Positions 1,424 through 62,252 of a stretch of DNA of 64,000 bases are shown in pieces; positions within the stretch are counted from its first letter, which is position 1, and every line of letters begins with the position of its first letter. The translations under genes and the position numbers were made by a program. The notes beneath the pieces were generated by a model. That model was not told the DNA's origin and ran no database searches. It was given only the letters and a program-made list of their open reading frames with translations. Source of the stretch: Dendrobates tinctorius (lineage: Eukaryota); NCBI RefSeq assembly GCF_039654945.1, contig NW_027362071.1:620001-684000 (forward strand). The letters are read 5' to 3'.

Positions 1424-2519
1424 AGGGAAACCTGGGTAACATTAACAATGGTGGGCCCTGCAATAGGGAATAGGGAAGTGGCGACCTCCTGTACTCCCCT
1501 GAGCCAGTGTCCCTGCACTCCTAACGTTCCCTATGCCGGTTCCGCACCGGGCGACGCACAGGAACCTAAAAACCCTAGCTCGCCCTGGACCTAAACCCTC
1601 ACTAGGGAATTGGTCGGTGCAGAAACTAATCCCACCACTGCACTAAAACACACATGAGGGAAAATGACAATACAGGGGAAACACCACTTAGCTTTGCTCT
1701 GTTGCGTACGCTCCTAGCAACAGAGCCCACCACCTGTGTGCATCTTTTCCTCCACCCGGATCCATCACCATAACTGGATCCTTCACCATAGAGCAGCCTT
1801 GGAGCAGAGTCCACCACCAATTGCAGAAGTCCAGTAACAGAGTCCCAAAGATGAGTTCAGCTCCTGCCCAAAAAGTCAGCCATGCTTGAGTCCAGCTCTC
1901 AGCAACCAAGTCCCGAATGCTGAGTGCAACTCTCTCCATAGTCGCCACTCCACCAAGCCATGCAAGTACCTCCTGCTGACACCATAAACTGTGACTCCAC
2001 CACGCCATGCCAGCCCTTCTTGCAGACCACATAGCTGCCACTCGTCCCCTCTGGCTGGGCTGCGCAGGACTCATGTTCAGCTCCTTCTTTCACCCAGGCT
2101 TCCTTGTGAATGACTAACACACAATATCACCAACAGTCATCAAACACACCTGAACTCTTTTATAGAGCCTCACACCTGATTTATAATTACGTGCACTAAA
2201 CCAAAGAAACTAAAGTGCACTACCACTCACCACCACCGGGGCAACTTAGAATGAACGACACCACGTGTAATAATTTTAATGGCCACCGGGGGGAATCACA
2301 TCACTTTGGCACCTAGCCAAAGGAAAAAAACTTCACTTATCCATTTAATCTGTCAGATCCATGCTGGATCATGACAAGCTCCCAGAACATCTGTGAGCAT
2401 CCCAGAGTAAGGAAAGACCTCTTGCACACTTGAGAGGCATCAAATTTCCCAGTCCCCTGTCTGAAAATGTCCAGAAACAAGCTGCAGAATGAGGTTTCCT
2501 TATTCTTGGAAGTGGTCAA

Positions 2520-3995
2520 CATGGTGGAACACAACAGAACCAACATCAGCACGTGAATACAACACCAGAACCATCAGCCGTACAAGAATGCAGCACCAGA
2601 ATCAACATCAGTACATGAATACAGCACCAGAACCACCATAAGCACATTAATACAACACCAGAACCATCATCAGTATAGGAATACAGCACCACAACCATAA
2701 ATGGTACACAAATACAGCTCTAGAATCACCATCAGTAAAGGAATACATCTCCAGAATCACTATCAGTGCATGAATATAGTACCAAAACCACCATCAGAAC
2801 ATGAAGACTGCATGAAAGAACTATCATCATTACAGGAATACAGCACCAGAACAATCAGTACAGGAATATTGCACCAGAGACAACATCACTACATGACACA
2901 AATCAATAGAAGCATAGAGGGAGAACAAGTAATTAAGAATATAAAAATTGTAACATTTTATCAAATATACCAATAATATACGTAGAAAAAGTGCAGACAA
3001 ATGATGATGATAGGTCTGAAACAGACTGAAACTCAAAAACACAATACAAAAACTGTTAGCCCTAAGTAATAATTGAAGCCAGTAGCAAGTAGCTAGAAAA
3101 ATATCTAGGTATAATATCTAAATATCAGAATGTACAATACTCTTATGGTATATCTAACAAGTAGTTTCAAAAAGAATATATGGAAGTGTAATAGCTCCCA
3201 GTATAGCTGACACAGATATGATTATAACACCATATCTAAAATATATTGGTCAAAAGGTACCCTAAATGTTATCCTATCAGAGGAATTGTAACCGTCATAG
3301 TAGTGATGTACATATATAAATCACATATATAACACAGAATCATAATGGTAATTATCTGCATCCATAGTGTACAAATGGGCTATAGCACTAACACCACCAT
3401 CAGTACATGAAAACTGCACCAGAGAACTATCATCATTTCAGGAGTACAACACTAAAATAATCAGCACAGGAATATTATACCAGAGACAACATCAGTACAT
3501 GAGTACAGCACCATAACCATCATTAGTACAGAAATGCATCACCAGAACCAACAACAGTGCAAAGATATGACACCAGAACCACCATCAGTATTTGAATAGA
3601 ACACCAGAATTACTATCAGTATATGAATAATACATCATCAGTACAAAAATACAACACCAGAACCATCACCAGTACTGACATACAGCACCACAGCCAACAT
3701 CAATACTTGAGTACAGCACCAGAACTATCATAACTACAAGAATTCTTCACCAGAACCATAATCAGCAGATGAACACAGCACCAGAATTACTATCATAGTG
3801 ACATCTCTAAAACCATCATTAGTACATGAATACAGCAGGAAAACCACCACCTTCGGTACAGGAATAAATCACCGTAACCCCCATCACTACATGAATACAG
3901 CACCAGAAACACTACTAGTAAATGAATACAGCACCAGAACTATCACCAGTACATGAATACAGCACCAGAACTATCACCAGTACATGAATACAGCA
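2520..3995. repeat. Degenerate ~31-bp minisatellite (accagaaccaccatcagtacatgaatacagc), interrupted at ~2900-3390
   Basis: Repeated unit seen directly. Confidence 0.8.
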
Positions 3996-6133
3996 GAATA
4001 CTTAGTACAGTGACCAATTGCAAAGTCAGATCAGCCCCAGGCATATACAATTGAATTACATAAACTTGTAACTCTCAGTATTACCTTAACAATGATAAGG
4101 AGATACTGGGAGTAGCTGTTTTTACCAGCCATCATCAGACTGAGGAACATACAGAGGAACCACAATACTGATTAGACGCTGTCAGTAACACTCTTTTTAA
4201 CATATAAAAGTGTAGCTTAACATTTGGGAATTATTTTATATGTTTTAGGCAGATACTGTAGTTGGAGTCTCAAAAGACCTCTTAGAAGTGTGCAGCCTAG
4301 GAGACAGGAGCGTATGATTTTCTACTGCATCCATACTCTGCTGTCTGTGCTCCTTTCCCCTGACCTGCATACTCCTAAGACGTCTTTTGAGGTCTCAAGA
4401 GCCAGACCCTACGCCCCTGTCCAGAACTAAAAGGGTCTAAAACATAAAAATCTCCCAAAAGTTTAGTTACTCTTTAAAGTGCATTGACAGTGGCCAATAA
4501 TCAGGAACCAATTATTGGCCTAACGAAGCAGGCTGTCAATCAAATGACGCACGAGCAAAAGGATCATTTGATGGGTTAAATAATTTTTCAGCTTACTTTC
4601 GTTCTCTGAAAATGAAAATGCGGCCAGTCTGTCTTAGCAAGCTATTAAATGACCGCAGATAGGACTCATATAGGAATATGCAATTGGCCATATATGCCTC
4701 CAGAGATCCAGGAACTGATAGATGACGCCTTTTCTGATTGGAATTGTTCTTATCCCTTACTTCTTCATCTGGTCCTGATGCTAGGTGTTGTATTCAACCA
4801 TAGGGTGACTATTCAGACAGAGCTCTCTCGGCAGACCTCCCTCTGCACAAAAAAAAACCATCCTCACCCTGCCCCTCTTGTGATACATGGCCTCCACACT
4901 ACCCCCTCCCAAAAATTATTGCCTAAAAATTATTGCTCTTACACTGTACCCCTCATATAATATGACCATCACACCATCGTCACATATGAACCATAATGCC
5001 ACACAGTCCCTCCTTATGATTTATACCCACCACACCATATCCATTTCTAAACTATGGCCCCTACACCATCCCACCTTATGAATTATAGCCACCACACTGT
5101 CCCATCCCCCAAAAACTATGGCCACCACACTGTCCTTCCTTCTTATGAACAATAACCGTTCCCCCTTATGAAATGGTCTGCACGCTGTTTCTGTGTTATG
5201 AACTACGATGGCCTTCACACTGTCCTCATCTTCAGTGCCTCCCACATTGCACCCTCTCCATGCTGTCCCCTTACACTACCCCTCCCTTTGCAAACTGCGC
5301 ACCCATACTATGCCTTCCCACCTGTCACTCCTTCTGCATACTGTACCCTTCCCCTCGCACTATCCCTCCCTCTGCATACTGACCCCCTAAACTGTGCTCT
5401 CGCACTAGCCCTCTTTCTGTATACCGTCCCCCTCTCCTCACACCATCCCTCCTTCTATATAAAATTCTATAATGCTGTAGATATGCCCCTGGTCCAACCT
5501 GAAAGAGAAGAAAAACAAGTATTATTATACTCACCCGGGGGCAGTCCGATGCGGTTTGGTCCGATGGGTGTCGCTGGTCCGGGCCTGGGCCTCCCATCTT
5601 CATGCGATGTCATCATCCTGCTTGGTTCGTGCTCGCACTCCTGTGCAGGCATACTGATCTGTCCTGCCCTCTGACTGTTCCACTCCTGGTTTTTGCTTCC
5701 AAATACTGATGTAAAATACTGACCAAATCCTGAACGTGGCCTTATACTCATCTCCGGTGCTGGTGTCATTCCAGTGGTGTCGGCACTGGCTCTCCTGGGG
5801 CTCCCGTGACATTATGTCATGTGATGCCTGAGGCCAATCCATGCTGGTTTCACTCTCCTCTCCTTCGGGTGGTTCACCTATATCCGGAGGGAGTGAGAGA
5901 GCAGCTGTAGGGAACGCGATCCCCAGCAGAAGCAGCGCCGGAATGGCGCAGGCACGGGAGATGAGAACAGGTATTATTACTTTACAAGGGGGGAAACATA
6001 GGGATTCAGAAGGGGTTATCTGAGTAGTAGACAATCCCTTTAAATAAAATGCAAAACATAAGAAAAAATAAAACTCTGCAACTGAAAAGTACATTGCAAA
6101 TCCAGAATGGCTGTTTTTCATTTCCGTCGCCTG

Positions 6134-7614: not shown

Positions 7615-8820
7615 TTATTATTATTATTTATTGTTATAGCGCCATTTATTCCATGGCGCTTTACATGTAAGGAGGGGTATACATAATAAAAACAAGTACA
7701 ATAATCTTAAACAATACAAGTCACAACTGGTACAGGAGGAGAGAGGACCCTGCCCGCGAGGGCTCACAATCTACAAGGGATGGGTGATAATACAGTAGGC
7801 GAGGGTAGAGCTGGTCATGCAGCGGTTTGGTGGATCGGTGGTTACTGCAGGTTGTAGGCTTGTCGGAAGAGGTGGGTCTTCAGGCTCTTTTTGAAGGTTT
7901 CCATGGTAGGTGAGAGTCTGATATGTTGTGGTAGAGAGTTCCAGAGTAGGGGTGATGCGCGAGAGAAATCTTGTATGCGATTGTGGGAAGAGGAGATAAG
8001 AGGGGAGTAGAGAAGGAGGTCTTGTGAGGATCGGAGGTTGCGTGCAGGAAAGTACCGGGAGACGAGGTCACAGATGTATGGAGGACTCAGGTTGTGAATG
8101 GCTTTGTATGTCATGGTTAGGGTTTTGAACTGGAGTCTTTGGGTAATGGGGAGCCAGTGCAGGGATTGACAGAGGGGAGAGGCCGGGGAATAGTAGGGGG
8201 ACAGGTGGATTAGTCGGGTAGCAGAGTTTAGAATAGATTGAAGGGGTGCGAGAGTGTTCGAGGGGAGGCCACAGAGCAGGAGGTTGCAGTAGTCAAGGCG
8301 GGAGATGATGAGGGCATGGACTAGGGTTTTTGCAGATTTTTGGTTGAGGAATGAACGGATTTGTGAAATATTTTTGAGTTGAAGTCAGCAGGAAGTGGAA
8401 AGGGTTTGGATATGTGGTTTGAAGGAGAGATCAGCGTCAAGGATTACTCCGAGGCAGCGAGCTTGTGGGACTGGGGAGAGTGGGCAGTCATTTACTGTAA
8501 TGGATAGGTTCGTTGGGGGGGGTCACATGAGATGGGGGAAAGATGATGAATTCTGTTTTGTCCATGTTAAGTTTCAGAAATCTAGCAGAGAAGAAGGATG
8601 AAATAGTGGACAGACATTGAGGGATTCTGGTTAGTAGGGAGGTGATATCTGGTCCAGAGATGTAGATCTGTGTGTCATCAGCATAGAGACGATACTGAAA
8701 GCCATGAGATTCTATGAGCTGTCCCAGGCCAAAGGTGTAAATGGAGAAAAGCCAGGGGTCCTAGAACTGAGCCTTGTGGGACTCCGACAGATAGGGGGCG
8801 AGGTGAGGAGGTGGTGTGTG
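7615..8820 (-). mobile_element. 5'-truncated L2/CR1-clade LINE (RT C-terminus, 3' UTR, (AAT)n tail)
   Basis: [10 protein letters not shown] and YADD motifs at ~8675-8785; L2-type C-terminus ...PLLWNSLP..IR.....FKKSLKTHLF (7842-8114); (TTA)n tail at ~7615. Confidence 0.9.
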
Positions 8821-9346
8821 AAATAAATATAAATATAAATATTAGTAAGATAAATATACAAAAGTTCACGCTCTGTTGAAACATTCCTAAGAAAAAAATA
8901 AAAATTATATATATATTACACACACACACCGTGTATATATATATATTTTTTTTAACGTCTCTACAAAAGGGGTGATATGAACTTTTGAATATTTATTTTA
9001 CTGATATATATTATTTTAATAACATTTGAGCAGAGGGGGGGGAAACAAACTTTTGTCTAATTTTAATATAAATTTAATTTATATTTAATTTTTTAATATA
9101 CATTTTTAATAAATATTGCTTTTTACATTTTAGATAAAGTCTTGAACCTGCAATCACTTATGTTAAACACTATTTTAATATTATATTGCAGTGTATTGTT
9201 AAAGGGAACCTCACTGGTGATTCATGCTGCCCGAAACACAGGCGGCACGTGTCAGAGTCTGGCTCTGTTAGTGCGGCTGTGTATTTTTTGGTCTGAAAGA
9301 CTGCAAAATTTCAGAGAAACACGCAGGCTTTGGGGCATACAGCTTA

Positions 9347-10386: not shown

Positions 10387-10546
10387 GGCCACGTTCACAC
10401 GTTCAGTATTTTATATCAGTATTTGTAAGCCAAAATCAGGAGTGGAATAACCAGCAGAAAGGTACGACAGAAACACGTCACCACTTCTGTATTGATCACC
10501 CACTCATGGTTTTGGCTTACAAATACTGAACGGTGTGAACATCGCC
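10387..10546. mobile_element. MITE, family shared with 17012-17206 and partial 5675-5742
   Basis: GGCCACGTTCACACGTTCAGTATTT terminal repeat. Confidence 0.7.
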
Positions 10547-10944
10547 TATGAAGCAGGCTCAGTTTCTGACCCTACTCTGCACATGTCCAGTGAGCCCCGA
10601 CACTTGCGCAGGAGTACATATATAATAGTATTACTATATCTGTATTATTATACAAGATGAGTATTTGTTAACGGGCTGCAGGACAAATTAAGTGTTTACA
10701 GGCTTCATTCACGCTGCAGAGCTGTAATCACAGAGAGTGTAAAGACAGGGGCCGGAGCGAGCCACACAACCTCCCCACCACAGCGGCTAAGTGGAGGCCC
10801 TTCATGACAGTGGGTTGGAGGGAAGGGGTTAATGATTCCAGGGGGTGGAGGAGGTGGATAAAGGGGGGTATATTAGGAGGCTTAAGGGGCGGTTACCTTT
10901 AGTTCCCGCTCTGGAGCCACGAGGGATTGTCCCACTCCCCAAGC

Positions 10945-12780
10945 ATGGAGTCCATAACTTCGGTCCTGGAGAGGCTGCGGGCGGCAGCAGTGGCGCAGCC
11001 TGACTGTTGGCTGGGACAATAGGAGGCCGAGATCATCGGGGGAGGTGGCGGTTTGTCCGTTGTTGCTTCTCCCTGTGCAAGGAGGCGGGTCAGGCCTCCG
11101 GAGCGCCTGTCCCCGGATGCTGCGCCACACACCCAGCGCCGGTGTCGGAGCCCCTCTCGGGACCCTCTGGCTCGGGTGCCTGCCGGTAGGCGCGCTGGCA
11201 GGCCCGGGGCCTGGAGGAATCCACGGGCCGGCCTGAGTGCAGCGGCGGTTGGTAGGCCGTCTCCCAGGCCTGATCGGGAGGCGGGGCCTGCGCGTGCCGG
11301 GCCGGCGCGGACCGATGACGTCACGGCAGGCCGCCGTGGAGTCGGGTGGCCTGCCTCATCGGCGCATGGCGGCTTTGAGAGGGCCAGCGTGGGGGGACTA
11401 TCGGGCGGCAGCCCCCGGCGGTCGGGGCGGGCTAGTGTCCCCTGTGATGCGGGCCCCTTGACTGGACCAGCGGCGGGGGAGGAACAAGGACGGAGCAGCA
11501 GACAATCGGTGATGGGTGCGGGCGGTGGGTGGCCACAGGCGGCAGCCCCTGTGCCTGTGCAGCCCGCTGGCCTCAGCGGGGGTCGGAGCGTGGAAGATTC
11601 CAGGAGAGAGTGGCCCTGGAGTGCAGCGGTGTCAAGAGAGCCTGTTTCGGCGAGTATCGGACCTCTGGGGACAGAGGGTCTCACACGAAGCTCCAGTTTT
11701 GACGCTCAGCAGGACTCGGGAATGGCGGCTGGAGGATACACAGCGTCCACGCAGCCCGGTGAGTATGGCTCCTTGTCTTGTCTGTCATCATCCCTAGTGA
11801 GGTCCCCTGCGGTCGGGAGCGGATTAGGCGGCCAGCCCGGGGCGGTAGAACAAGTTGTGGGGGAACAGGGCCCGTCACCAATCGGGGGTCTTGGGGAGAT
11901 ATTAGCAACCATGCAGGATTTGTTGGCGCGGATGGAGGGAGTTAGAGAGCATTCGGCGCATTTAGCTGCCTGGGTGGGGTCGCAACAGCGAGGGGCTGGC
12001 CCGTCGAGGGCGGCTATCGGGGTCTCGGGGGGCCGAGCGGACCATGTGTCTGTTTCAGTTCAGACGGAGAAAGAGAAGGAATGTCGGATCCATTTAGATA
12101 ATAGAGCCCACGGGGAGGTGTATGTATGCTTTGAGGGCCCACTCGGAGCTCATCTAAAAAAGGAGGTGCGGGAAAAGATCTGGAAGGATGAGTATGTCGA
12201 GATTTTTTCCTTGTTACCGCTAGAAAAGTTCAATTTGGATAAGGGAAAGAAGGACGATAGCAAAAAAGAGGAGGAGGAAAAACGGAGATGGCGTTTGATT
12301 CCACAAACGTTCGCTAATTGGCTCCAGGCGTTTGCAATTCTGGCTAGCGTGATTGGTGAAAAGGCGCCTGAGTATTGTTCTCCTCATTTTTGTTATTTAG
12401 ATTCAATTTGGGAGGCGTATACGGGGGTCAGGCTTGGCTCCGTTACGACGAGCAGTTTAGACAGAGGAAGGCGATTCGTCCGGCGATTTGGTGGGATCAG
12501 AAGGACATAAGACTGTGGTTAAAGGTTATGACACAGACTAGGTTTGGCCATTCCTTTCCTGGGGGAAGGGGCGGGCTCTTCAAATGCGCAGGCGGTCAGT
12601 CGGGCACCCAGAAGCAGGGTCTCTGCTGGCAATTTAATGATGGGCAGTGTAAATTCGGAACAAGCTGCAAATTCAAGCACCTTTGCTCCCATTGCAATGG
12701 AACCTCGCATGGTGCTTCCAGATGCTTTAGGAAGCAGAAAGGAAAAGCAGAGAGTGGTAATTCCAAAGGGGCGACGCCAG
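10945..12780 (+). pseudogene. ORF1/gag-like of the YR retrotransposon (premature TAG at 11020, frameshift near 12420, C-terminal Cys/His zinc finger)
   Basis: ATG 10945 is in frame with ORF 11053-12510; EYVEIFSLL..WLQAF..YGGQAWLRYDEQFRQ; CWQFNDGQCKFGTSCKFKHLCSHC..H..C. Confidence 0.8.
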
Positions 12781-14358
12781 TGAAACTAGCCGCAATGGCC
12801 TCTTATCTAAATAGGTTTCCGGATGGTGTAAATGCGGAACTGTTGTTGTCTGGTTTCAGAGATGGTTTTAGAATTCCTGACCCTCCTTTTGAGATTCCAT
12901 GGGGGCGGAAGAATCTCAGGTCAGCTGACCTGTTTGGTGGGGTGGTGTCGGAAAAGTTGGCAAAGGAAGTTCAGTTGGGAAGGATGTCGGGGCCGTTTAA
13001 GGATCCTCCGTTTGGGGATTTGGTCGTTTTGCCCCTGGGGGTGGTGCCGAAGAAAGAGCCAAATAAGTTTAGGCTTATTCATCACTTGTCTTTCCCTCGT
13101 GGTAGGTTAGTGAATGATGCAATTGATCCGGAAATGTGCTCAGAGGTGTATACGTCTTTTGATGAGGTGGCAAAGTTGGTCCGGAGGTGTGGAAAGGGGG
13201 CACGTTTGGCGAAAACTGATATCGAGTCGGCGTTTCAGTTGCTCCCGGTTCATCCAGAGAGTGATAGGTTGTTGGGCTGTTTCTGGGAGGGGGAATTTTT
13301 TGTTGATAGGTGTTTGCCAATGGGTTGCTCGGTTTTTTGAGGCGTTCAGTTCTTTTCTCGAATGGGTTGTCCGGAACGTGTCGGGTTTTGATTCCGTGAT
13401 TCATTACCTAGATGATTTTTTGTGTGTCGGTCCGGGTGACTCAGGCTGCTGTGAGAGGCTGCTTAGGGCTGTGGAGTGGGTGGCTGAGCGTTTTGGCGTA
13501 CCGCTTGCTCCAGGAAAAACAGAGGGGCCTTTTACGTGCCTGTCTTTTTTGGGAATCATGATTGATTCGGTGGCTTGGGAGTTCCGTTTACCGGAGGATA
13601 AGGTGGAGGCGTTGCGGGTTGAGGTGTCTCGAGCTAGACTGGTGAAGAAATTGTCATTGAGAGAGGTTCAGTCACTACTTGGTAAATTGAATTTCGCTTG
13701 TTGCTTTATTCCAATGGGTAGGGTCTTTTCTCGGCGTTTGGCGAGCTCCACGGCGGGAGTGCGGGCCCCACATCATTTTGTTTGACTTACCAGTGAACAT
13801 AAGGCGGATTTGGAGGTGTGGGACAAGTTTTTGGAGCAATATAACGGACGATCGTCGCTCATGGAAGAGGCAGATTTAAAGGAGGAGTTGGACCTGCTTA
13901 CGGATGCATCGGGTGGAGTGGGTTTTGGGGCGTATTTTAAGGGCCAATGGTGCGCGGCTGCGTGGCCTGCTGAGTGGTTTCAGCTAGGCCTTGTTAAGAA
14001 TATAGCTTTGTTGGAGATTTTTCCCATCTTGGTGGCGGTGAACCTGTGGATGGAGGAGTTTCGGAATAAAAGAGTCCGTTTTAATTGTGACAACATGAGA
14101 GTGGTGTGCTCCATTAACAGCTTGACTGCGTCCTCTCCTCCGGTGATTCGAGTTCTGCGGCAGCTTGTTTTAACTTGTTTATTGCTCAATGCTCATGTGA
14201 CGGCTTCTCATGTGCCAGGTATTAGGAATTCCATTGCTGATTCTTTGTCTCGTTCGCAGTGGGAGCGTTTTCGGACCTTGGCCCCGGATGTGAAGGAAGC
14301 GTGCCTGGAGTGTCCAGCCGGGCTTTGGAAGGTGGTCTCAGGGATGCAGAACCCCTAA
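12780..14358 (+). pseudogene. Reverse transcriptase + RNase H of the YR retrotransposon (frameshift near 13335, in-frame TGA at 13783)
   Basis: KFRLIHHLS, KTDIESAF, LPMG, HYLDDF; RNase H TDASG.GFG, LEIFPI, CDN, HVPG..N..ADSLSR. Confidence 0.9.
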
Positions 14359-15225
14359 TACGGGCATCTCTGTCTTCTGGTACTTGGTCGAGCTACAAGT
14401 CAGTTTGAAGTTCTTGGGAAAACTGGTTGGGGACACGTTCCTATGGCACCTCTGGGGAGGATCAATTGGGCGCGTTGCTGGCGTGGTTGGGTTTTGGGGC
14501 GGAAGAAGGTTGGTCGGTGTCTAGGGTGGGGAAGGTTAGGGCCGGTTTAGCTTTTGGATTTAAATTGCGGGGTCAAATTGATTTGACCAAGTGTTTTTTG
14601 GTCAGCCAGGCCATCAAGGGGTTCAGACGCCGGCGTCCACTGTCATTTGGTATCCTTGAACGGTTGGGGGCGGTGTTGGTCGATGTTTGTGTGTCTCGGT
14701 TTGAGTGTTCTCTTTTTTGGGGGGGCTTTTTCCCTTGCCTTTTTTGGGGCATTGAGGGTGGGGGAGTTGGTATCTCCGGGACGGTATTCCGGTGGGGGTT
14801 TGTTGGATAGGGACGTATTGGTGGGTGACAGTGGTTTGGAGTTTTGGATAAGGAGGTCAAAAACGGACCAGGAAGGTAGGGGAAAAAGGGTGGTTTTGGG
14901 TGCAGTGCCAGGATCTATGATGTGCCCGGTGCGCTGCTTGCAGGATTACAGGTCATGGCAACAGAGGGGAGAGGGGCCATTGCTGCGTCATGCTGACGGT
15001 TCCTTCTTGTCAAAGTTTCAGTTTGTGGCGGTTTTTCGTAAAGGTCTGGACAGATTGGGTATTGATGGGTCTAGGTTCGCTTCTCACTCTTTCAAGATTG
15101 GGGCAGCTACGGAAGCGGCAGTTGGGGGTTTGGGTTCAAAGGTGATACAGTGGATTGGAAGGTGGGAATTGGGACTTTATAGGTCGTACGTTCGCACTGG
15201 GGCTTTGGGTGCGGAGCTACATTGA
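14344..15225 (+). pseudogene. Tyrosine recombinase of the YR retrotransposon (stop near 14407, frameshift near 14715)
   Basis: FFGALRVGELV, RRSKTDQ, SHSFKIGAAT, GRW...Y..YVR motifs; catalytic HxxR appears as HSFK. Confidence 0.88.
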
Positions 15226-15286
15226 AAAGAGAACGTTGGGTTATTTTGTTTGCGCGTTGGTTAATGGTGGTTTTTTGTCATTGCAG

Positions 15287-15934
15287 GTTGCACTCCTTTG
15301 CTGGTGTGGATCCTGGGCCATTCCTTTGTGTATTAGGGAGCTCGGCGTGCGGATGTTCAGCGAGAAGGGCGGCAGCTGGGTTTTTCGCGAAGTGTGGCGG
15401 TAATCAGGTGGTTGGGTTTTAGGGGTATGGGTTGCAACAGGGTCTTGCAGGAGGTACGTATTAGCGCTAGGCTTGACAAGGACCCTGATATTTTAGTTCT
15501 TCATGCAGGGGGAAATGATTTTGGGGTCCGTCCTTTTCGTGAATTGGTCAAGGATATTAAGCATGATCTTCTACGGTTGTGGTTGTCGTTTAAGGGGTCA
15601 ACTGTGGTATGGTCGGAGATTGTCCCGAGAAAGACTTGGCGGCATGCGAGATCATTTGTCAAGTTAAATAGGGCACGGATAAAGGTTAATAGGGCGGTGT
15701 CCAATTTCGTGGTTAGGAATGGGGGGGGTGGTTCGGCACTTTGACCTGGAGAGAGGGAGTGGGGAGTTTTGGCTGGCTGATGGTGTTCATCTGAATGATG
15801 TGGGCATGGATTTGTGGGCATTGGGCCTACAGGACGGTATTGAGAGGGCCATAGTTTTTCGGTGTGGGGGGGTCTCAGGCAATCGAGGTTTTCAATTGCC
15901 TTCGTTGTGGCGTTTGGGGGAAGGGGGTCCTTGA
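15287..15934 (+). pseudogene. SGNH/GDSL-like hydrolase ORF of the element (TAG near 15334, frameshift near 15725, no initiating ATG)
   Basis: Block I WILGHSFV, block III LHAGGND, block V DGVHL. Confidence 0.8.
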
Positions 15935-16497
15935 AGTTGGTGCTAAATTGGTTTTGGGGGATCTGTGGTAATATGGATTCCTCAATGTTATTATCTGTGG
16001 TTTGGGTCTGGTGACTGGTGATTTGGGGGGACTTCCGGCAGTGGTTGGTCGGATCCCCAGGGATTAAGTGGACAGTGCAACCCCGATGGGGTTTTGGTGC
16101 TCCCGAGCCAGTGGGGTAACGGCCGGGAGTAATTTATGGTATGCGTTTGTCCACAAAAAAGTATTCTTTACGTTTTGGTCACCAGATTTGGGAGCTTCAA
16201 GGACCCTCCCAAGGTTGCATTTATATTTACAAATGTTGTACGTTACTTAAATAAAAGGCTGCTGTGGCCATTATATTCCATTCTGGTTTCCTGGTGTTAT
16301 TTGGGGCTCAGGGGGGTGGGGAGTGGACTTGGGATCAGTGGTTGGAAGAGGCAACTCAGCTGCACATCGCCAACTCCAATGTCATGAGGCGCCCAATGTC
16401 CATGCAGCTTTACACTAAGGAGACATACGGACTTCATGTCCCGCTGCATTGTGCCTCCATACTGTGCTATATGACAGAGATATTCTCCCATAGTAAC

Positions 16498-16774
16498 TAG
16501 TGATGAGTGAGCGGCTGGGATAAGGTGTTATCTGAGCATGCCCGGGTGCTATCCAAGTGTCTTCGGCGTGCTCGAAAAATATGCTCGAGTGCCCGCGGCT
16601 GCATATCTCGCGGCTGTTCGACAGGCGATCCCTGCATGTGTTGCGCCTGTCGAACAGTCGCGAGACATGCAGCCACGGGGACTCGAATACATTATTCGAG
16701 CACGCCGAGGACACTCGGCTAGTGCACAAGCATGCTCAGATAACACCTTATCCCAGCACGTACGCTCATCACTA
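16498..16774. mobile_element. hAT-like MITE (TAGTGATGAG..CTCATCACTA); other copies 58636-58946, 61963-62252, partial ~32990-33216
   Basis: Long internal palindrome; imperfect 8-bp TSD (atagtaac/gtaataac). Confidence 0.8.
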
Positions 16775-17011
16775 GTAATAACATATTAATGTGGCGTCTG
16801 ATGGCACAATATTTTACATCTGAGGTAACCTCTGTGTGATATGGGATCATATGTAGGTACAGTCGGGCCCCATAAACATCTATTGTTTTCTTATTACACT
16901 TCCATCTGCCACAGTTTTTATTCAGACCCCCATTCATTTAGTTGGAGCCCACCATTATTTTTTTTTTCTAATTAATGTAAAGGGGGATTCTGTTGTGGAT
17001 ATCCACATTAA

Positions 17012-17955: not shown

Positions 17956-18084
17956 CATGGCAGACCCGCAAGCCATGGCAGACCCGCAAGCCATGGCAGA
18001 CCCGCAAGCCATGGCAGACCCGCAAGCGATGGCAGACCCGCAAGCCATGGCAGACCCGCAAGCCATGGCAGACCCGCAAGCCAT
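17956..18084. repeat. 18-bp minisatellite (catggcagacccgcaagc) x7
   Basis: Near-perfect tandem copies. Confidence 0.95.
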
Positions 18085-20138
18085 GTCAGCCCAATGATCG
18101 GATCCATCAGGTGGGGTGGGGAAGATGGTTTCCAGACTGACGGCCTTTCAAAAGCAAATCTACCAATTCACCCCCCTTTTTCACCAAATATAAATAGCAA
18201 AATAATAATAATAGAAAAAAAAAAATCACATTTCATAATGCTGCATGCATACTTGGCGTGAGTGCAAATTGTCAAAACATCGGCTCGCACTCGGACCAAT
18301 GTTATTCACAGAGGCCATGCACATGTCCGATTGTTTTTTCTTGGACCACTCGAGGGGAAAAAAAATAAAAAATAAATTGCAGCATGCTTCATTTGCTTTC
18401 TATAACCAGATTGCACTTGGTCTGTGAAAAAAAAAAATTAAATTAAAAAAAAAAAAAATCGGACTCTACCCGGACGACACCCAATTTTCATGGACTGACA
18501 AAATGGAGAAATGAAGAAAAAAAAAAATATGAATACCACAATTGTTTTTCTGTCACCGCTCTGCTCTCTCCCCCAAAATGTAATAACAAGTGATCAAAAT
18601 GTCATATGTACCCCCAAAATGGTATCGATAAAAATGCCAACTTGCCACATAAAAAAAACAAAAACAAGCCAAGTTTTCACCCAGGTCCAGGTCTCAGAAA
18701 ATGGCCACACAAACCAATTTTTTTTTTCTGATTTATTATTACCCACTCAAATATATATTAAGTTTTCGATCTCCAGATCTGACCCAGAAAATCACATTAC
18801 TACATTATTTTTAGTGCCCTATAATAATAAAAAACAGTATCAGAACTGCGTTCTGTATTTTCCCACCATTACGCTGCACTTGGAATATTTTTCAGTCTAT
18901 TATACGGGCAAATGGCGTCATTCAAAACGACACAACACCTCACCTGGGGGGAAAAAAAAAATTTGACTTTGGACGACTATGTTTACAGGAATATATGAAA
19001 AAAATTATGGCTTTTCGAAGAAGAGGAGGTTAAAAAAAAAAAAAAAAAAAAAAAGAAAGCGCAAAAGTGAAAAATTGAATCCTTAAGGGGTTAATGGATC
19101 TAAATTCACCTGACACTGGGGATTTTTTTTTTTTAATCAGTTCTTGCATAACAGTGAATCTGGAATAAAGGAAATTTATCTTTCGCCCATCTCATAGTAT
19201 CAGTTAATATACCGAGCAAAGGTGAGAGAGGGGCAAGGGTTGATGTACTTGAGTGAGTGCCGGGTCACTGCTGCGTTCACATCCACAGCTGCGTCCTTGC
19301 TGTAAGTTCTTCCACAGAGGGGCGATGCTGATGGCCTGGGGGGGAATCTTGGGATAAAAGCAGATGATTGGTGTGGGCTTGAGTTACATTGAATGGCCGT
19401 GAGATCTGCAGCTCTGGTAAACCCGGATAATGCTGATCACAAGGAGAAAACTGCTGACGGCTAGAGACTGACTGCGGCAAGAGCTGCACTCCCAGCCTGG
19501 CTCTATCGCTACGTGCCGTAGTCCGGGCCGATCATCCTGATCACTACTTAGCGCTATAATAGACGTGTATCTGCCGTACGCTGTATTAACGTATTCCTTA
19601 TATAATGGCGCGGCACAGGATGCATTTTTGGGGCATTTACTAACTCTGTTTGCTAATTCTCTCTCCGCAATTTTATTTTAGATTGATTTTTTTAATGTAA
19701 TGAATGGCGTTATATAAATTTGGCACATAGACGTATTTTTGCTTTACCATATATTGCGTAAGTTTTTTTTTTGTTTTTTTTTTTATTTTTATACATTTTT
19801 TTTCAGAATAATATTACAGAAAAGGAAAAAAGTCCAAATCCTTCAATACAAGAACATGTTTCAACTTAATGACGTTTTTAACCTTTTTAATACTATCAGC
19901 GGTGCCTTTCTAAATAGCAAGGCTATGAGAGGGTTAAAAAGTTTCGGCTTTTCAGGTGCAGGATCCGTCCTCGAGCGCAGGCGGTTTTATGACAGTTTAT
20001 AGGATCCGCTTCGTTCCATATATTTTTGCCCTGCACATAAAGGGAAGGGTGCTACAAAAATTTGCAAAGTATCGGAGAACCTGTTACTAAAATTTCCTCC
20101 TTTTTGTTTCTTACAGGAAAGAACTGACCAGGAGGAAC

Positions 20139-28136: not shown

Positions 28137-28365
28137 TTTTCCACATGGGCACAGTAGGTTGGGGACCTCCTTTTTTCCACATGGGTGCAGTGTGTTGGGG
28201 ACCTCCTTTTTTCCACATGGGTGCAGTGTGTTGGGGACTTCCTCTTTCCACATGGGTGCAGTGTGTTGGGGACCTTCTCTTTCCACATGGGTGCAGTGTG
28301 TTGGGGACCTCCTCTTTCCACATGGGCGCAGTAGGTTGGGGAGCCCCTTTTTTCCATATGGGTGC
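28137..28365. repeat. ~37-bp minisatellite (ccacatgggtgcagtgtgttggggacctcctttt)
   Basis: About six tandem units. Confidence 0.9.
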
Positions 28366-45199: not shown

Positions 45200-46420
45200 T
45201 CCCCATTATGGCACCTTCCTGTATTAATATCCCCCGTCCTGGGCCTTTCATCCCCTTTCTGAAATAATGTCCCCCATCCTGGCCCCTTCCTGTAATAATG
45301 TCCCCGAACCTGGGCCCCTTTCGGTAATAATGTCCCCCATCCTGTAACTACGTCTCTCATCCTAGGTCCCTTCTTGGTATAATGACTCCCATTCTATTAT
45401 AATGTCCCCTATCCTGGACCGCTTCCTGTAATAAAGTCCCCTGTCCTCGTCTTTTCTGCCCCTTTCTGAAATAATGTCCCTGAACCTGGGCCCCTTTCGG
45501 TAATAATGTCCCCCATCCTGTAACTACGTCTCTCATCCTAGGTCCCTTCTTGGTATAATGACTACCATTCTATTATAATGTCCCCTATCCTGGACCACTT
45601 CCAGTAATAAAGTCCCCTGTCCTCGTCTTTTCTGCCCCTTTCTGAAATAATGTCCCCCATCCTAGCCCCTCCCCGTAATAATGTCCCCGAACCTGGGCCC
45701 CTTTCGGTAATAATGTCCCCCATCCTGTAACTACGTCTCTCATCCTAGGTCCCTTCTTGGTATAATGACTACCATTCTATTATAATGTCCCCTATCCTGG
45801 ACCACTTCCTGTAATAAAGTCCCCTGTCCTCGTCTTTTCTGCCCCTTTCTGTAATAACGTCCCCCATCCTGGTCTCTTCCTGTAACAATATACACCATCC
45901 TGGTATAATTTCCCCCATCATGGGCCCATTCTTTGTATAATGTCCCCCATGCTATAACAATATCCCCCATCATGGTCCCTTTCCTGATGAAATGTCCCCC
46001 ATCCTGGGCCACTTGCTGGTGAAATGTCCCCTATCCTGAGACCCTTCCTGGAATAATGTCCCCCATCCTGGTCTCTTTCAGTAACAATATATGCCATCCT
46101 GGTATAATTTCCCCCATCATGGTTCCCTTTCTTGTGAAATGTCCCCCACCCTGAGACCTTTCCTGGAATACTGTCCCCCATCCTGAGACCTTTCCTGGAA
46201 TAATGTCCCCCATCCTGGGACACTTCCTGCAATATTGTCCCCCATCCTGGGACACTTCCTGGTATAATGTCCCCCATCCTGGTCTCTTTCAGTAACAATA
46301 TACACCATCCTGGTATAATTTCCCCCATCATGGGCCCCTTTTTTTGTATAATGTCCCCCATGCCATGACAATGTTTCCCATCCTGGGACATTTCCTGGTG
46401 AAATGTTTCCCATCCTTTAA
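45200..46420. repeat. Complex minisatellite (aatgtcccccatcctgg..) with higher-order duplications
   Basis: Repeated units seen directly. Confidence 0.9.
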
Positions 46421-47073
46421 CCCTTTCTTGTAAAATGCTCGTTCTGACGTTCTTTTCCAACACTATAAAAGAACCCTGATTCTTCTGACTTTTCTCGGCT
46501 CCCACAACGTACGGTGTCCTCTTCTGTAGCGTGTAGCTGTTATGGTCGCACCTTCTTCTCCCGCGATCATCACGTCTCTGCATATGGGACATGTAGAGAA
46601 AAACAGCTATGTGCACAAAGCCTTAAAGGGGCATAACCATCCTGCACATTTATAGGATAAGATGAATGCATGATGGATGAGGGTCTCCCTGGTGGGCCCT
46701 GCCTCTATATCAGGATTGGGTCCCCAGCGTGCTCCGCTGTCAGAGGAAAGGTGAATGTGTCTGTTCATTCATTTTTATAAGCGTTCCAAACATTCCATGC
46801 ACACTAGGGCACAATCCCCTGTACATTCCACTATTGTACCTAGACTCGGATTAACAATGTATTGTTCTTGTCTTTATTATACATGCCAGCAATAGGACCA
46901 GCGGTAAGAAAGGGGTCCACGTAGAGTCAGCACTACTGTATAACCTGGGCTTTACATATCATTCCCTTTTCATCACTTATCATTAACATGCAATTATTTA
47001 TCTGATTTAAATTCTACTTTTACCCCAGAATCTGGAGTTGTTTTTCTTTTGTTCCTGCATCTTTCCGTTCCAG

Positions 47074-58606: not shown

Positions 58607-58635
58607 GTAAATAGCTGTGGTCAATATGTAAAATC

Positions 58636-58946
58636 TAGTGATGAGTGAACGTGCTGGGATAAGGTGTTATCTGAGCATGCTCGGGTGCTAACTGAGTGTC
58701 TCCAGCGTGCTCGAATAATATGTTCTAGTCCCCGCAGCTGCATGTCTCACAGTTTTTCGACAGCCGTAACACATGAGGGAATGTCCTGTTTGTCAGACAA
58801 TCCCTGCATGTGTTGCAGCTGTCTAACAGCTGTGAGACATGCAGCCGCGGGGACTAGAACATATTATTCGAGCACGCCGGAGACACTCGATTAGCACCCG
58901 AGCATGCTCAGATAACACCTAATCCCAGCACGTACACTCATCACTA
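58636..58946. mobile_element. hAT-like MITE
   Basis: TAGTGATGAG..CTCATCACTA; 8-bp TSD gtaaaatc/gtaaaatg. Confidence 0.85.
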
Positions 58947-59529
58947 GTAAAATGTAATCGGTGTAAGTCAAACCGTAATTAGTTGATTTCCTGTCTGTAT
59001 ATGGAAGACGCTAATTATTTACATAGACGTCATAGAACAGAATTTTGGTTCACTGGTTATTTCCTTCCAAAATGCAAAATTAAGCATGGAGAGGAGAGGA
59101 AGTATCTCGGGGTGAGTGGAGAAAGCAGACTATAAACAAGGAGGAAAGCACAAGAAGCGGAAATTAGGGCAGGATAGAAGCTGTGCTGATATAAGAGCAG
59201 TGAAACCATCATCTCCCCAGGTACACACAGAGCTCACATCCAGCCTGTATTACTGGGAGAGGCGCTCCCACAAGAGAAACATCTGAATCTTGGATCAGTC
59301 ATAAAAATGAATACAGGAATGAATCTTGCAGACTTAAACTTAACACAATTTTATTATCTAAAAGGTAACGACTTACATGTGAAATTCATTTTCCGTGTTA
59401 AAGGTTTCTCTGGCCTTCAGTGTCCTACAATGCAGCTGTCCACACAGGCGTGTGTATAAAAGTTGTATTATAATCTGCATTTTGTATTTTTTTTAATCCG
59501 TATTTGTTGAATGTGATCTTTTCTTCCAG

Positions 59530-61400: not shown

Positions 61401-61962
61401 GCAGCTTTTCCAAGCGTATGAGACTTCGTATGATATTCTTTAATTTTAAGATTTTGATCGATGTCCTTGGTTGGCGCAGAATATCGGCGTCTAATATAAT
61501 AATCGTTTTGGTTATTTTTAATTGCGTAGTAAACAATTACTGTCGCAATTCCTGGTGGGAACGAGGGTTTTCAGACCTGACCTATATGGCTATACACTGC
61601 CATTATATTGGATCGTGAGGCTTGTGGCTGTAATACAGAGGAAAGAAATTACAGCCGCAGTAATGTAGTGGGAACCTTTCCCTTGCAGCTGCCGCATGGG
61701 GCAGAGTTCACACCAACATCTGACAGCCAATGGCCACCTGCTCAAGGGCACCCATCCATATGCGGCGGCATCAAAACTCAGCCTTACGCGCACAAATGGC
61801 AGGTTGAGCTGTGAGGATCAAGACACAACAGGAGACACAGAACCAGGGAGGGTAGACAAGCACAGGAGCCGAAGAGTCAGTAAGGGGAGAGCAGCAGCGT
61901 TTGGAGTGTGAACTAATACAGAAGAAAGTTTGGAATGCTTTCAGCAGATGAAGGGTTAACAA

Positions 61963-62252
61963 TAGTGATGAGCAAACGTGCTGGGATAAGGTGTTAACTG
62001 AGCATGCTCGGGTGTTACCGGAGTGTCGTGGGCTTGCTCACATAATGTGTTCGAGAACCTGCAGCTGTGTGTTTTGCGGCTGCTAGACAGCCGCATCACG
62101 TGGGGATTCCCTAACAAACAGGCCATCCCCCACATGTGCTGCAGCTGTCTTAACAGTTGTAAGCATGCAACCACCGAGACTCGGAACGTAATTTTCGAGC
62201 ATGGAGAAGATACTCGGGGATAACACCTTATTAGAACGGTCCCTCATCACTA
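61963..62252. mobile_element. hAT-like MITE at the centre of a larger inverted repeat
   Basis: TAGTGATGAG..CTCATCACTA. Confidence 0.75.

Follow-up and report, generated by a model that had tools for sequence, protein, structure and literature searches.

Tyrosine-recombinase retrotransposons with an SGNH hydrolase frame have been described in Xenopus, where the Ngaro-like elements DIRS-53_XT and DIRS-54_XT encode gag-like, reverse transcriptase/RNase H (RT/RNase H), tyrosine recombinase (YR) and SGNH products in that order and lack a methyltransferase (PMC9210276), in line with the premise of the original prediction that some amphibian Ngaro elements carry such a frame. The Xenopus hydrolase is described there as 'with no proven function' and the four ORFs as overlapping, and neither 'splic' nor 'intron' occurs anywhere in the text of that paper. 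In the non-LTR element ZfL2-1, an SGNH esterase is a fixed part of an unspliced ORF1 protein that also contains a coiled coil, and a membrane role in assembly or transport has already been proposed for it (PMC3905857, PDB 4C1B). The bdelloid Vesta LTR elements, which encode an integrase, carry a GDSL esterase as ORF3 in the env-like last position, and ORF3s are, as a rule, expressed through spliced messages; a Gag fusion does not figure in the account of Vesta that we draw on (PMC5408684). Finally, in the retrovirus MLV, a donor within gag (SD') is spliced to a downstream acceptor, fusing the N-terminal part of Gag in frame to a distant domain, the C-terminus of integrase, and both P50 RNA and protein have been demonstrated (PMC10496198).

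The window analyzed here is a stretch of 64,000 nt from Dendrobates tinctorius (GCF_039654945.1, NW_027362071.1, 620,001-684,000), and coordinates count from its first letter. Within it lies an amphibian retrotransposon of the tyrosine-recombinase kind, present as a decayed copy, in which an SGNH esterase forms a fourth frame; neither a second copy nor an intron-less copy was found within the 64 kb. The features of the element are as follows.

10945-11758, + strand: N-terminal part of ORF1, predicted to be the coding part of exon 1, interrupted by a stop at 11020
11756-11766, + strand: predicted splice donor (exon end 11758, phase 1), from GT ranking and the footprint in relatives
11759-15286, + strand: predicted intron of the esterase mRNA, 3528 nt, containing gag core, RT, RNase H and recombinase
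12112-12770, + strand: ORF1 region with the gag-like core and a CCCH zinc finger; frame change near 12417
12770-14358, + strand: RT and RNase H, broken (Pfam RVT_1 in pieces, E 0.006-0.039)
14236-14259, + strand: second candidate acceptor, inside the end of RNase H
14260-15225, + strand: tyrosine recombinase frame, broken, with a stop at 15223
15232-15286, + strand: esterase acceptor (AG-free zone, branch motif at 15261-15265, pyrimidine tract, CAG)
15287-15934, + strand: SGNH hydrolase, predicted exon 2, without ATG, with a stop at 15334 and a frame change near 15725 (Pfam Lipase_GDSL_2, E 9.9e-5)
15905-16215, + strand: long 3' stem, closed by the inverted repeat 15925-15936/16195-16206
16250-16255, + strand: AATAAA, candidate polyadenylation signal

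The order gag-like ORF1, RT/RNase H and tyrosine recombinase is present, with Pfam matches that are weak in this broken copy, whereas its matches to relatives are strong. The gag-like core is supported by a zf-CCCH match (E 2.6e-4), 56 ORF1 relatives and tblastn; the RT/RNase H region is 69% identical to relative P0013, which itself matches RVT_1 at E 1e-6; and the recombinase relative P0032 matches Phage_integrase (E 4.7e-4). An SGNH hydrolase ORF follows the recombinase, as in the amphibian Ngaro-like forms. No methyltransferase was found after RNase H, whose frame ends at 14358, overlapping the start of the recombinase in a piece that gives no Pfam match. Split direct repeats (A1 ... B1 A2 B2) were not detected in 10500-16600, a difference from DIRS-53_XT/DIRS-54_XT; they are also missing in many Xenopus copies and in the DIRS-54_XT consensus (PMC9210276). 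The earlier label of a Ngaro-type element thus holds for the coding layout but not for the repeats, and because this copy lacks them we describe it as Ngaro-like in coding layout only and do not file it as a member. A DIRS-like retrotransposon was also considered and rejected, as neither terminal inverted repeats with an internal complementary region nor a methyltransferase was found in the element. The stops anticipated at 11020 and 15334 are both there, but the decay of the copy had been understated: further frame changes lie near 12417, 12770, 13335, 14640-14720 and 15725, and further stops at 13783 and 14406. The 3' stem is more stable than shuffled sequence (z −4.72, 0/100), in a region picked after the repeat had been noticed.

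The fourth frame carries the Ser, Gly, Asn and His blocks, which are invariant columns in alignment A1, and the flavodoxin-like fold that define SGNH hydrolases. The model of relative P0018 adopts the SGNH fold (pLDDT 89.3) and gave 148 PDB matches at E<=0.001, those listed being of GDSL/SGNH type or designed scaffolds, with the ZfL2-1 structure 4C1B at rank 7 (E 4.8e-8, 19% identity); an atlas search with the whole length of P0092 brought up clusters of SGNH type, from chordates and molluscs. The N-terminal part of ORF1 consists of a short helical head, which is also conserved in relatives, an Arg/Ser/Pro-rich motif and a long disordered linker. In the model of P0093, helices span residues 3-17 and 19-31 and are followed by a low-confidence linker; residues 1-60 of this protein gave no usable match in the atlas, and a predicted two-copy complex of head residues 1-55, run without an alignment, scored 0.05. 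An unspliced ORF1 protein of the ZfL2-1 type, with coiled coil and esterase upstream of pol, was rejected as a description of this element: here the head is two short helices, the esterase lies behind the recombinase, and a predicted splice would join it to the head and its long linker.

As originally described, the SGNH frame is devoid of ATG codons between 15200 and 15420, and stops at 15223 and 15262 block it upstream. The first strand (residues 10-16 in P0018) is integral to the fold, so that starting at the Met adjoining block I in some copies would cut it. The acceptor proposed at 15286/15287 has 10/12 pyrimidines and a 53-nt zone free of AG; its branch motif, TTAAT, places the A at −22 and is set apart from the T run by a G-rich stretch. 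A loose rule finds sixteen pyrimidine-rich AG sites across the element, and by that rule alone this acceptor is ordinary; it is among the 3 of 150 YAG sites that pass a stricter rule, picked after the sites were known. Conservation of splice sites across species was read as protein-level codon footprints. All six Logan read-through SGNH ORFs fit the codons NYA|GNN, the footprint of a pyrimidine tract with a phase-1 YAG, and residue −1 varies among them (P, T, I, L, S; A in this copy). Their expected pyrimidine content before the junction is 0.79 versus 0.43 (0/100000 draws), and in the frames of the element itself 24 of 3282 positions show a footprint of this kind. One further T-rich read-through, P0173, has Glu-Gly at the junction and does not fit NYA|GNN.

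Each of these six ORF calls begins at a Met that precedes block I, as expected if the esterase were translated alone and the splice-like sites were incidental; initiation would then be at an upstream Met or a near-cognate codon, and the transcript could be internal or full-length. Gazolla et al. likewise list the esterase as its own fourth ORF, using an ATG-only ORF finder (PMC9210276). However, the Met codons lie in T-rich sequence that is not conserved, 5, 8, 13, 20, 23 and 35 codons upstream of the junction, and the conserved ATG of its own that would have spoken against splicing was not found in the six. In this copy an ATG is lacking and the frame is stopped 8 codons upstream, and separate translation leaves the donor footprint (below) unexplained; we regard it as very improbable. 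Fusion of the esterase to the recombinase, by stop readthrough or frameshift, would account for the single frame shared by the end of the recombinase and SGNH in this copy and for the recombinase His motif found upstream of SGNH in 9 of 142 hits, and frameshifting is favored for the recombinase itself by Poulter and Butler (quoted in PMC13003380). Against it, the stops at 15223 and 15262 intervene, and none of the six Logan read-through ORFs has recombinase sequence upstream. None of the nine joined hits keeps the terminal tyrosine motif, which identifies them as truncated models; the YR-SGNH readthrough that would also have counted against splicing was not found, and we give this explanation hardly any credence.

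At the other end of the predicted intron, the sole ATG in 10870-11030 is at 10945, and 10945-11758 comprises 814 nt, or 271 codons plus one nucleotide. The donor is thus in phase 1, matching the acceptor as had been claimed. The intron starts at 11759 with GTGAGTAT, the sole GTRAG[T] site in 10880-16300, and the donor at 11758/11759 ranks first of the 430 GT sites in the element, with 10/11 consensus matches against 9 for the runner-up. In unspliced ORF1 it reads Gln-Pro-Gly-Glu-Tyr, and the QPGE-type footprint in unspliced relatives sits within a divergent linker. Of 10 informative Logan ORF1 proteins, 8 have the motif Q[PL][GS][EK] at 116-166 residues ahead of the gag anchor (128 in this copy), a count that includes a broadening made after inspection of the data (plain QPGE, 7/10) and relatives that are not independent. 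The motif has no occurrence in 2238 other upstream residues, and shuffles reached at most 3/10 in 20000. The motif is missing in P0041 and P0072, and P0079 has QLGE at ~87 residues from the anchor, outside the 116-166 band. The substitutions fit GTRAG (Ser-Lys in P0053, Gly-Lys in P0155), while the conservation of Gln-Pro exceeds the strict needs of a donor.

Gene models supply further examples of the predicted product: 32 of the 142 SGNH hits join the ORF1 head to SGNH without gag core or pol, and they are scattered over a quick SGNH tree (137 rows, used for spread only). Fusion model P0099 matches unspliced P0059 as far as QPG and no further; among the best 30 fusion/unspliced pairs, a clear same-family break at the motif is seen for P0099, P0006, P0007, P0103 and P0092, and most other pairs are low-complexity matches. 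All 14 long hits are NCBI gene models; Logan proteins, among which a fusion would have implied a spliced contig, are absent from them. Gene finders rely on the same GT-AG signals, and such models do not count as independent evidence from RNA; those for Pristimantis (P0006-P0008) were obtained by projecting annotations of other frogs, with no RNA-seq of the species used (PMC13621697). The junction residue is G/E/D/A/V in 23/32 fusion models versus 17-19/32 at three nearby positions, a weakly discriminating difference. Other parts of the element are spliced to SGNH in 22 of the 142 hits, indicating that predictors do not invariably pick the ORF1 donor. A second lineage has models that enter SGNH from the recombinase start (P0132, P0149, P0156, P0159, P0168, P0169 and P0203), and P0096 joins only 16 ORF1 residues to SGNH. 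Together with the excess conservation of Gln-Pro, these would suit a genuine acceptor served by a different donor, such as one close to the 5' end or at the start of the recombinase, with QPGE kept for protein reasons. Yet a non-coding upstream donor still leaves SGNH without an ATG, the Gly-Glu substitutions obey the nucleotide rule, and this copy offers no better donor than that in ORF1; such an arrangement appears most unlikely.

With footprints at both sites in unspliced relatives and many gene models, the spliced ORF1-N/SGNH route originally predicted is supported, and judged from sequence, splicing from the ORF1 donor to the esterase acceptor probably occurs in cells of active relatives. 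A single transcript would there have two uses. Unspliced, it would yield full-length Gag-like ORF1, RT/RNase H and recombinase and serve as the genome; spliced from the mid-ORF1 donor to the acceptor just ahead of the first strand of the esterase, it would encode the esterase placed behind the helical head, basic motif and disordered linker of ORF1. We found no published description of this route. It is a new form of a strategy already known, with MLV P50 as its nearest counterpart: at the sequence level, and by analogy only, a gag-internal donor and an in-frame downstream acceptor are present here too, whereas the partner is a whole enzyme domain, seemingly without another route of translation. 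The comparison first drawn with retroviral env splicing is apt as to splicing, but env is not the nearest analog, since a long piece of ORF1 is retained in the product.

The ORF1 head could quite possibly bring the esterase to the site where Gag gathers, with the enzyme acting on or binding membranes during particle assembly or transport. Alternatively, splicing might mainly hold transposition down, most transcripts losing gag core, pol and recombinase, with the fusion secondary or a dominant Gag inhibitor; a near-perfect ORF1 donor would reduce genome-length RNA, and truncated Gag inhibitors are known from Ty1 (PMC4599808). The Ser, Asn and His blocks are, however, all kept in 25/32 fusion models and 104/142 hits, which points to selection on enzyme function, and we consider a mainly limiting role unlikely. 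That explanation concerns the purpose of the splice and is compatible with its occurrence.

A second acceptor candidate, at 14259/14260 (branch A at −19, 10/12 pyrimidines, CAG), lies six codons past the stop that opens the recombinase frame, is in phase 1 in that frame and would link it to the ORF1 donor in this copy. We tentatively suggest, as a possibility we hold with some doubt, that one ORF1 donor serves both acceptors (14259/14260 and 15286/15287), making recombinase and esterase alike ORF1-N fusions with the targeting head of Gag, in place of the recombinase frameshifting favored by Poulter and Butler, and that frogs have since turned the spliced ORF1-N/SGNH form into a family of host genes, the active sites of which are partly degenerate.

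The papers we draw on leave open how downstream frames are expressed in tyrosine-recombinase retrotransposons and what function the amphibian hydrolase has; exact, testable junctions are now given. The hydrolase product is redefined as a Gag-N fusion, and this is the protein to express and assay. The arrangement suggests convergence, the ORF1-esterase design of non-LTR elements having been reached by another route, and it accounts for a group of frog gene models labelled 'uncharacterized' as products of the element. Should the second acceptor be genuine, the enzyme that integrates these elements would likewise have been mis-defined.

The four frames of the element, in the order ORF1, RT/RNase H, recombinase and SGNH, are present as one decayed copy within the 64-kb window, and among named relatives, gene models from poison frogs come nearest (gag core, 84%). 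The Ngaro-type label of the original prediction holds for the coding layout, which is that of amphibian Ngaro-like elements, but a search of the element found no split direct repeats, so it is not classed as a Ngaro-like member. GATAAA and TATATT motifs at 10857–10874, ~70–90 bases 5′ of the ORF1 ATG, form a candidate promoter, and the 3′ non-coding region (15905–16215) is predicted to fold into a long branched stem (z −4.72) that may be part of the replication signals. The minus strand at 7842–8992 holds pieces with a YADD-type motif that resemble a non-LTR element's RT end. Repeats in the window are:

2464–4032, tandem array, period ~31 bases
17957–18092, tandem array, period ~18 bases
28139–28349, tandem array, period ~35 bases
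45215–46437, tandem array, periods ~32–207 bases
16496–16787, palindromic MITE-like repeat copy, directly 3′ of the element
58623–58950, palindromic MITE-like repeat copy
61955–62105, palindromic MITE-like repeat copy

A splice from ORF1 to the SGNH frame had been proposed to join ORF1-N (head plus linker) to the esterase, and recomputation returned the same donor, acceptor, intron length and phases. ORF1 from its ATG at 10945 to 11758 comprises 271 codons and one base, placing the donor in phase 1; the intron (3528 nt) opens at 11759 with GTGAGTAT and closes with the acceptor AG at 15286, also phase 1. The donor is the sole GTRAG[T] within the element and scores best among its 430 GT sites (against an 11-letter consensus). 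A loose rule finds 16 pyrimidine-rich AG sites in the element; a stricter one, fixed after the sites were seen (at least 9/12 pyrimidines, at least 20 AG-free bases and a branch motif), passes 3 of 150 sites, namely 13105, 14259 and 15286. The SGNH frame lacks an ATG across 15200–15420 and is closed upstream by stops at 15223 and 15262.

Splice sites in relatives were inferred from codon constraints in their proteins. The lgn-labelled proteins, presumably unspliced ORF calls from assembled contigs, read straight across both splice sites, in keeping with such an origin. Among 56 ORF1 matches, 19 were lgn, and 10 were scored after removing seven that start too far downstream and two that fail the anchor pattern. 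Q[PL][GS][EK] lies 116–166 residues ahead of the gag anchor in eight of these ten (128 in the window) and nowhere else in the 2238 upstream residues; 20000 shuffles gave at most 3/10, a statistic that ignores relatedness and protein-level constraint. Plain QPGE, the window's own motif, occurs in 7/10; the two proteins that lack even the wider motif read GSGE and SGGE. Two unscored proteins carry QPGE inside the 116–166 band (P0059) and QLGE ~87 residues from the anchor (P0079). The departures Ser-Lys (P0053) and Gly-Lys (P0155) are both compatible with N|GT RAG, and for 11 of 17 cases chosen by hand the residue after the motif allows a codon beginning with T. T content is 0.32 just past the window's donor (11759–11818) versus 0.13 before it, and relatives shift correspondingly past the motif to F/L/I/Y/C/N/S/V residues.

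At the acceptor, 13 near-length SGNH matches include eight lgn proteins, six of which reach upstream of block I, the first SGNH block. NYA|GNN fits all six read-through ORFs, in five of them at the same position as in the window and in the sixth one codon upstream; a footprint of this type occurs at 24 of 3282 positions across the element's three frames. The −1 residues are P, T, I, L, S and T (A in the window), and such variation within a fixed codon class is the pattern that selection on a nucleotide signal would leave. The F/C/S/L/V/H tract ahead of the junction has an expected pyrimidine content of 0.79, versus 0.43 for the enzyme body (0/100000 draws). The start Met of these ORFs lies 5–35 codons upstream, at no conserved position.

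Joined products appear among gene models, which are predictions: those of Pristimantis are projected annotation with no RNA-seq from the species (PMC13621697, in part), and those of Hyla sarda come from NCBI annotation using brain RNA-seq (PMC12405506, in part). Five of 14 long SGNH matches (P0005–P0008, P0014) consist of ORF1-N and SGNH only; none of the 14 is an lgn fusion. A profile search gave 3214 representatives at E ≤ 0.001, of which 150 were listed, and among the matches listed 142 of 169 SGNH proteins have block I and fewer than 900 residues. An ORF1 head joined to SGNH without core domains was found in 32 of these 142, the others carrying core pieces (22), other long (47) or short (41) upstream parts; among the 32, P0155 is a misclassified multi-piece protein, P0183 carries a segment from the recombinase start, and six belong to a host-like family. 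P0099 matches the unspliced P0059 through QPG and thereafter continues as SGNH, and the structure model of P0093 comprises helices 3–17 and 19–31, a low-confidence linker and the esterase. The pair of splice sites is a real feature, and its reading as a splice that makes an ORF1-N/SGNH fusion is supported and likely.

The host-like family (P0005, P0014, P0102, P0161, P0198, P0219, P0114) keeps head and linker between Phyllobates and Hyla, lacks the catalytic His or Asn in four proteins and is possibly a domesticated spliced product. Separately, P0084–P0087, P0090, P0108, P0142 and P0170 are giants of 1188–3112 residues with 2–6 related SGNH domains in tandem, possibly host genes assembled from the element's esterase.

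The esterase of the relative P0018 has a modelled fold (pLDDT 89.3) matching GDSL/SGNH structures, among them 4C1B, the ZfL2-1 esterase. Of the 142 proteins among the matches listed, 104 have the Ser, Asn and His blocks together; the SGNH frame is thus under selection and must have some way of being translated. Readthrough from the recombinase is supported by no match: the recombinase His motif lies upstream of SGNH in 9/142 among the matches listed, with the terminal tyrosine motif in 0/9. Initiation at a Met adjoining block I could draw on the 20 of 139 proteins (among the matches listed) with a Met within four residues, but would, on the modelled fold, delete its first strand. In a second lineage (models P0132, P0149, P0156, P0159, P0168, P0169, P0203) the recombinase first helix runs into SGNH, leaving at TW..Y then G/D, which suggests an additional donor at the recombinase start.

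Besides the proposed ORF1-to-SGNH splice, a strong candidate acceptor 14259/14260 (14236–14260), in the RNase H end and six codons past the stop opening the recombinase frame, is phase 1 in that frame, so splicing to it from the ORF1 donor would fuse ORF1-N in frame with the recombinase. A split N|TG codon requires L, V or M, found at the matching position in 12 of 19 sequences (window counted) compared with 18% over the residues after it; among these 12, P0138 fits by chance, and four others begin inside the segment. P0123 joins ORF1-N straight to the recombinase at this site. Against this, conservation of the RNase H motif may by itself have produced the site, its support comes from gene models alone, and 7/19 have a Met 17 residues further on that is a possible own start; frameshifting was proposed by Poulter and Butler 2015, as quoted in PMC13003380. 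We give a recombinase made as an ORF1-N fusion slightly less than an even chance.

Literature searches found no published description of splicing in Ngaro-like elements: "splic" and "intron" are absent from the full text of PMC9210276, the accessible part of PMC13003380 does not mention SGNH, hydrolase or esterase, and the accessible parts of PMC6681497, PMC7192593 and PMC8547959 do not describe the ORF1-N/SGNH route. The strategy itself is known, from MLV P50, the product of a gag-internal donor (PMC10496198, in part), and the spliced ORF3s of LTR elements (PMC5408684, in part); its predicted use in Ngaro-like elements would be new as far as the literature found. Most likely the RNA has two uses, the unspliced form doubling as genome and Gag/pol mRNA and the spliced form encoding ORF1-N/esterase. 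The head common to Gag and fusion would plausibly carry the enzyme to Gag assemblies, where, by analogy with the ZfL2-1 esterase and its binding to phospholipids and liposomes (PMC3905857, in part), it may have a membrane role.
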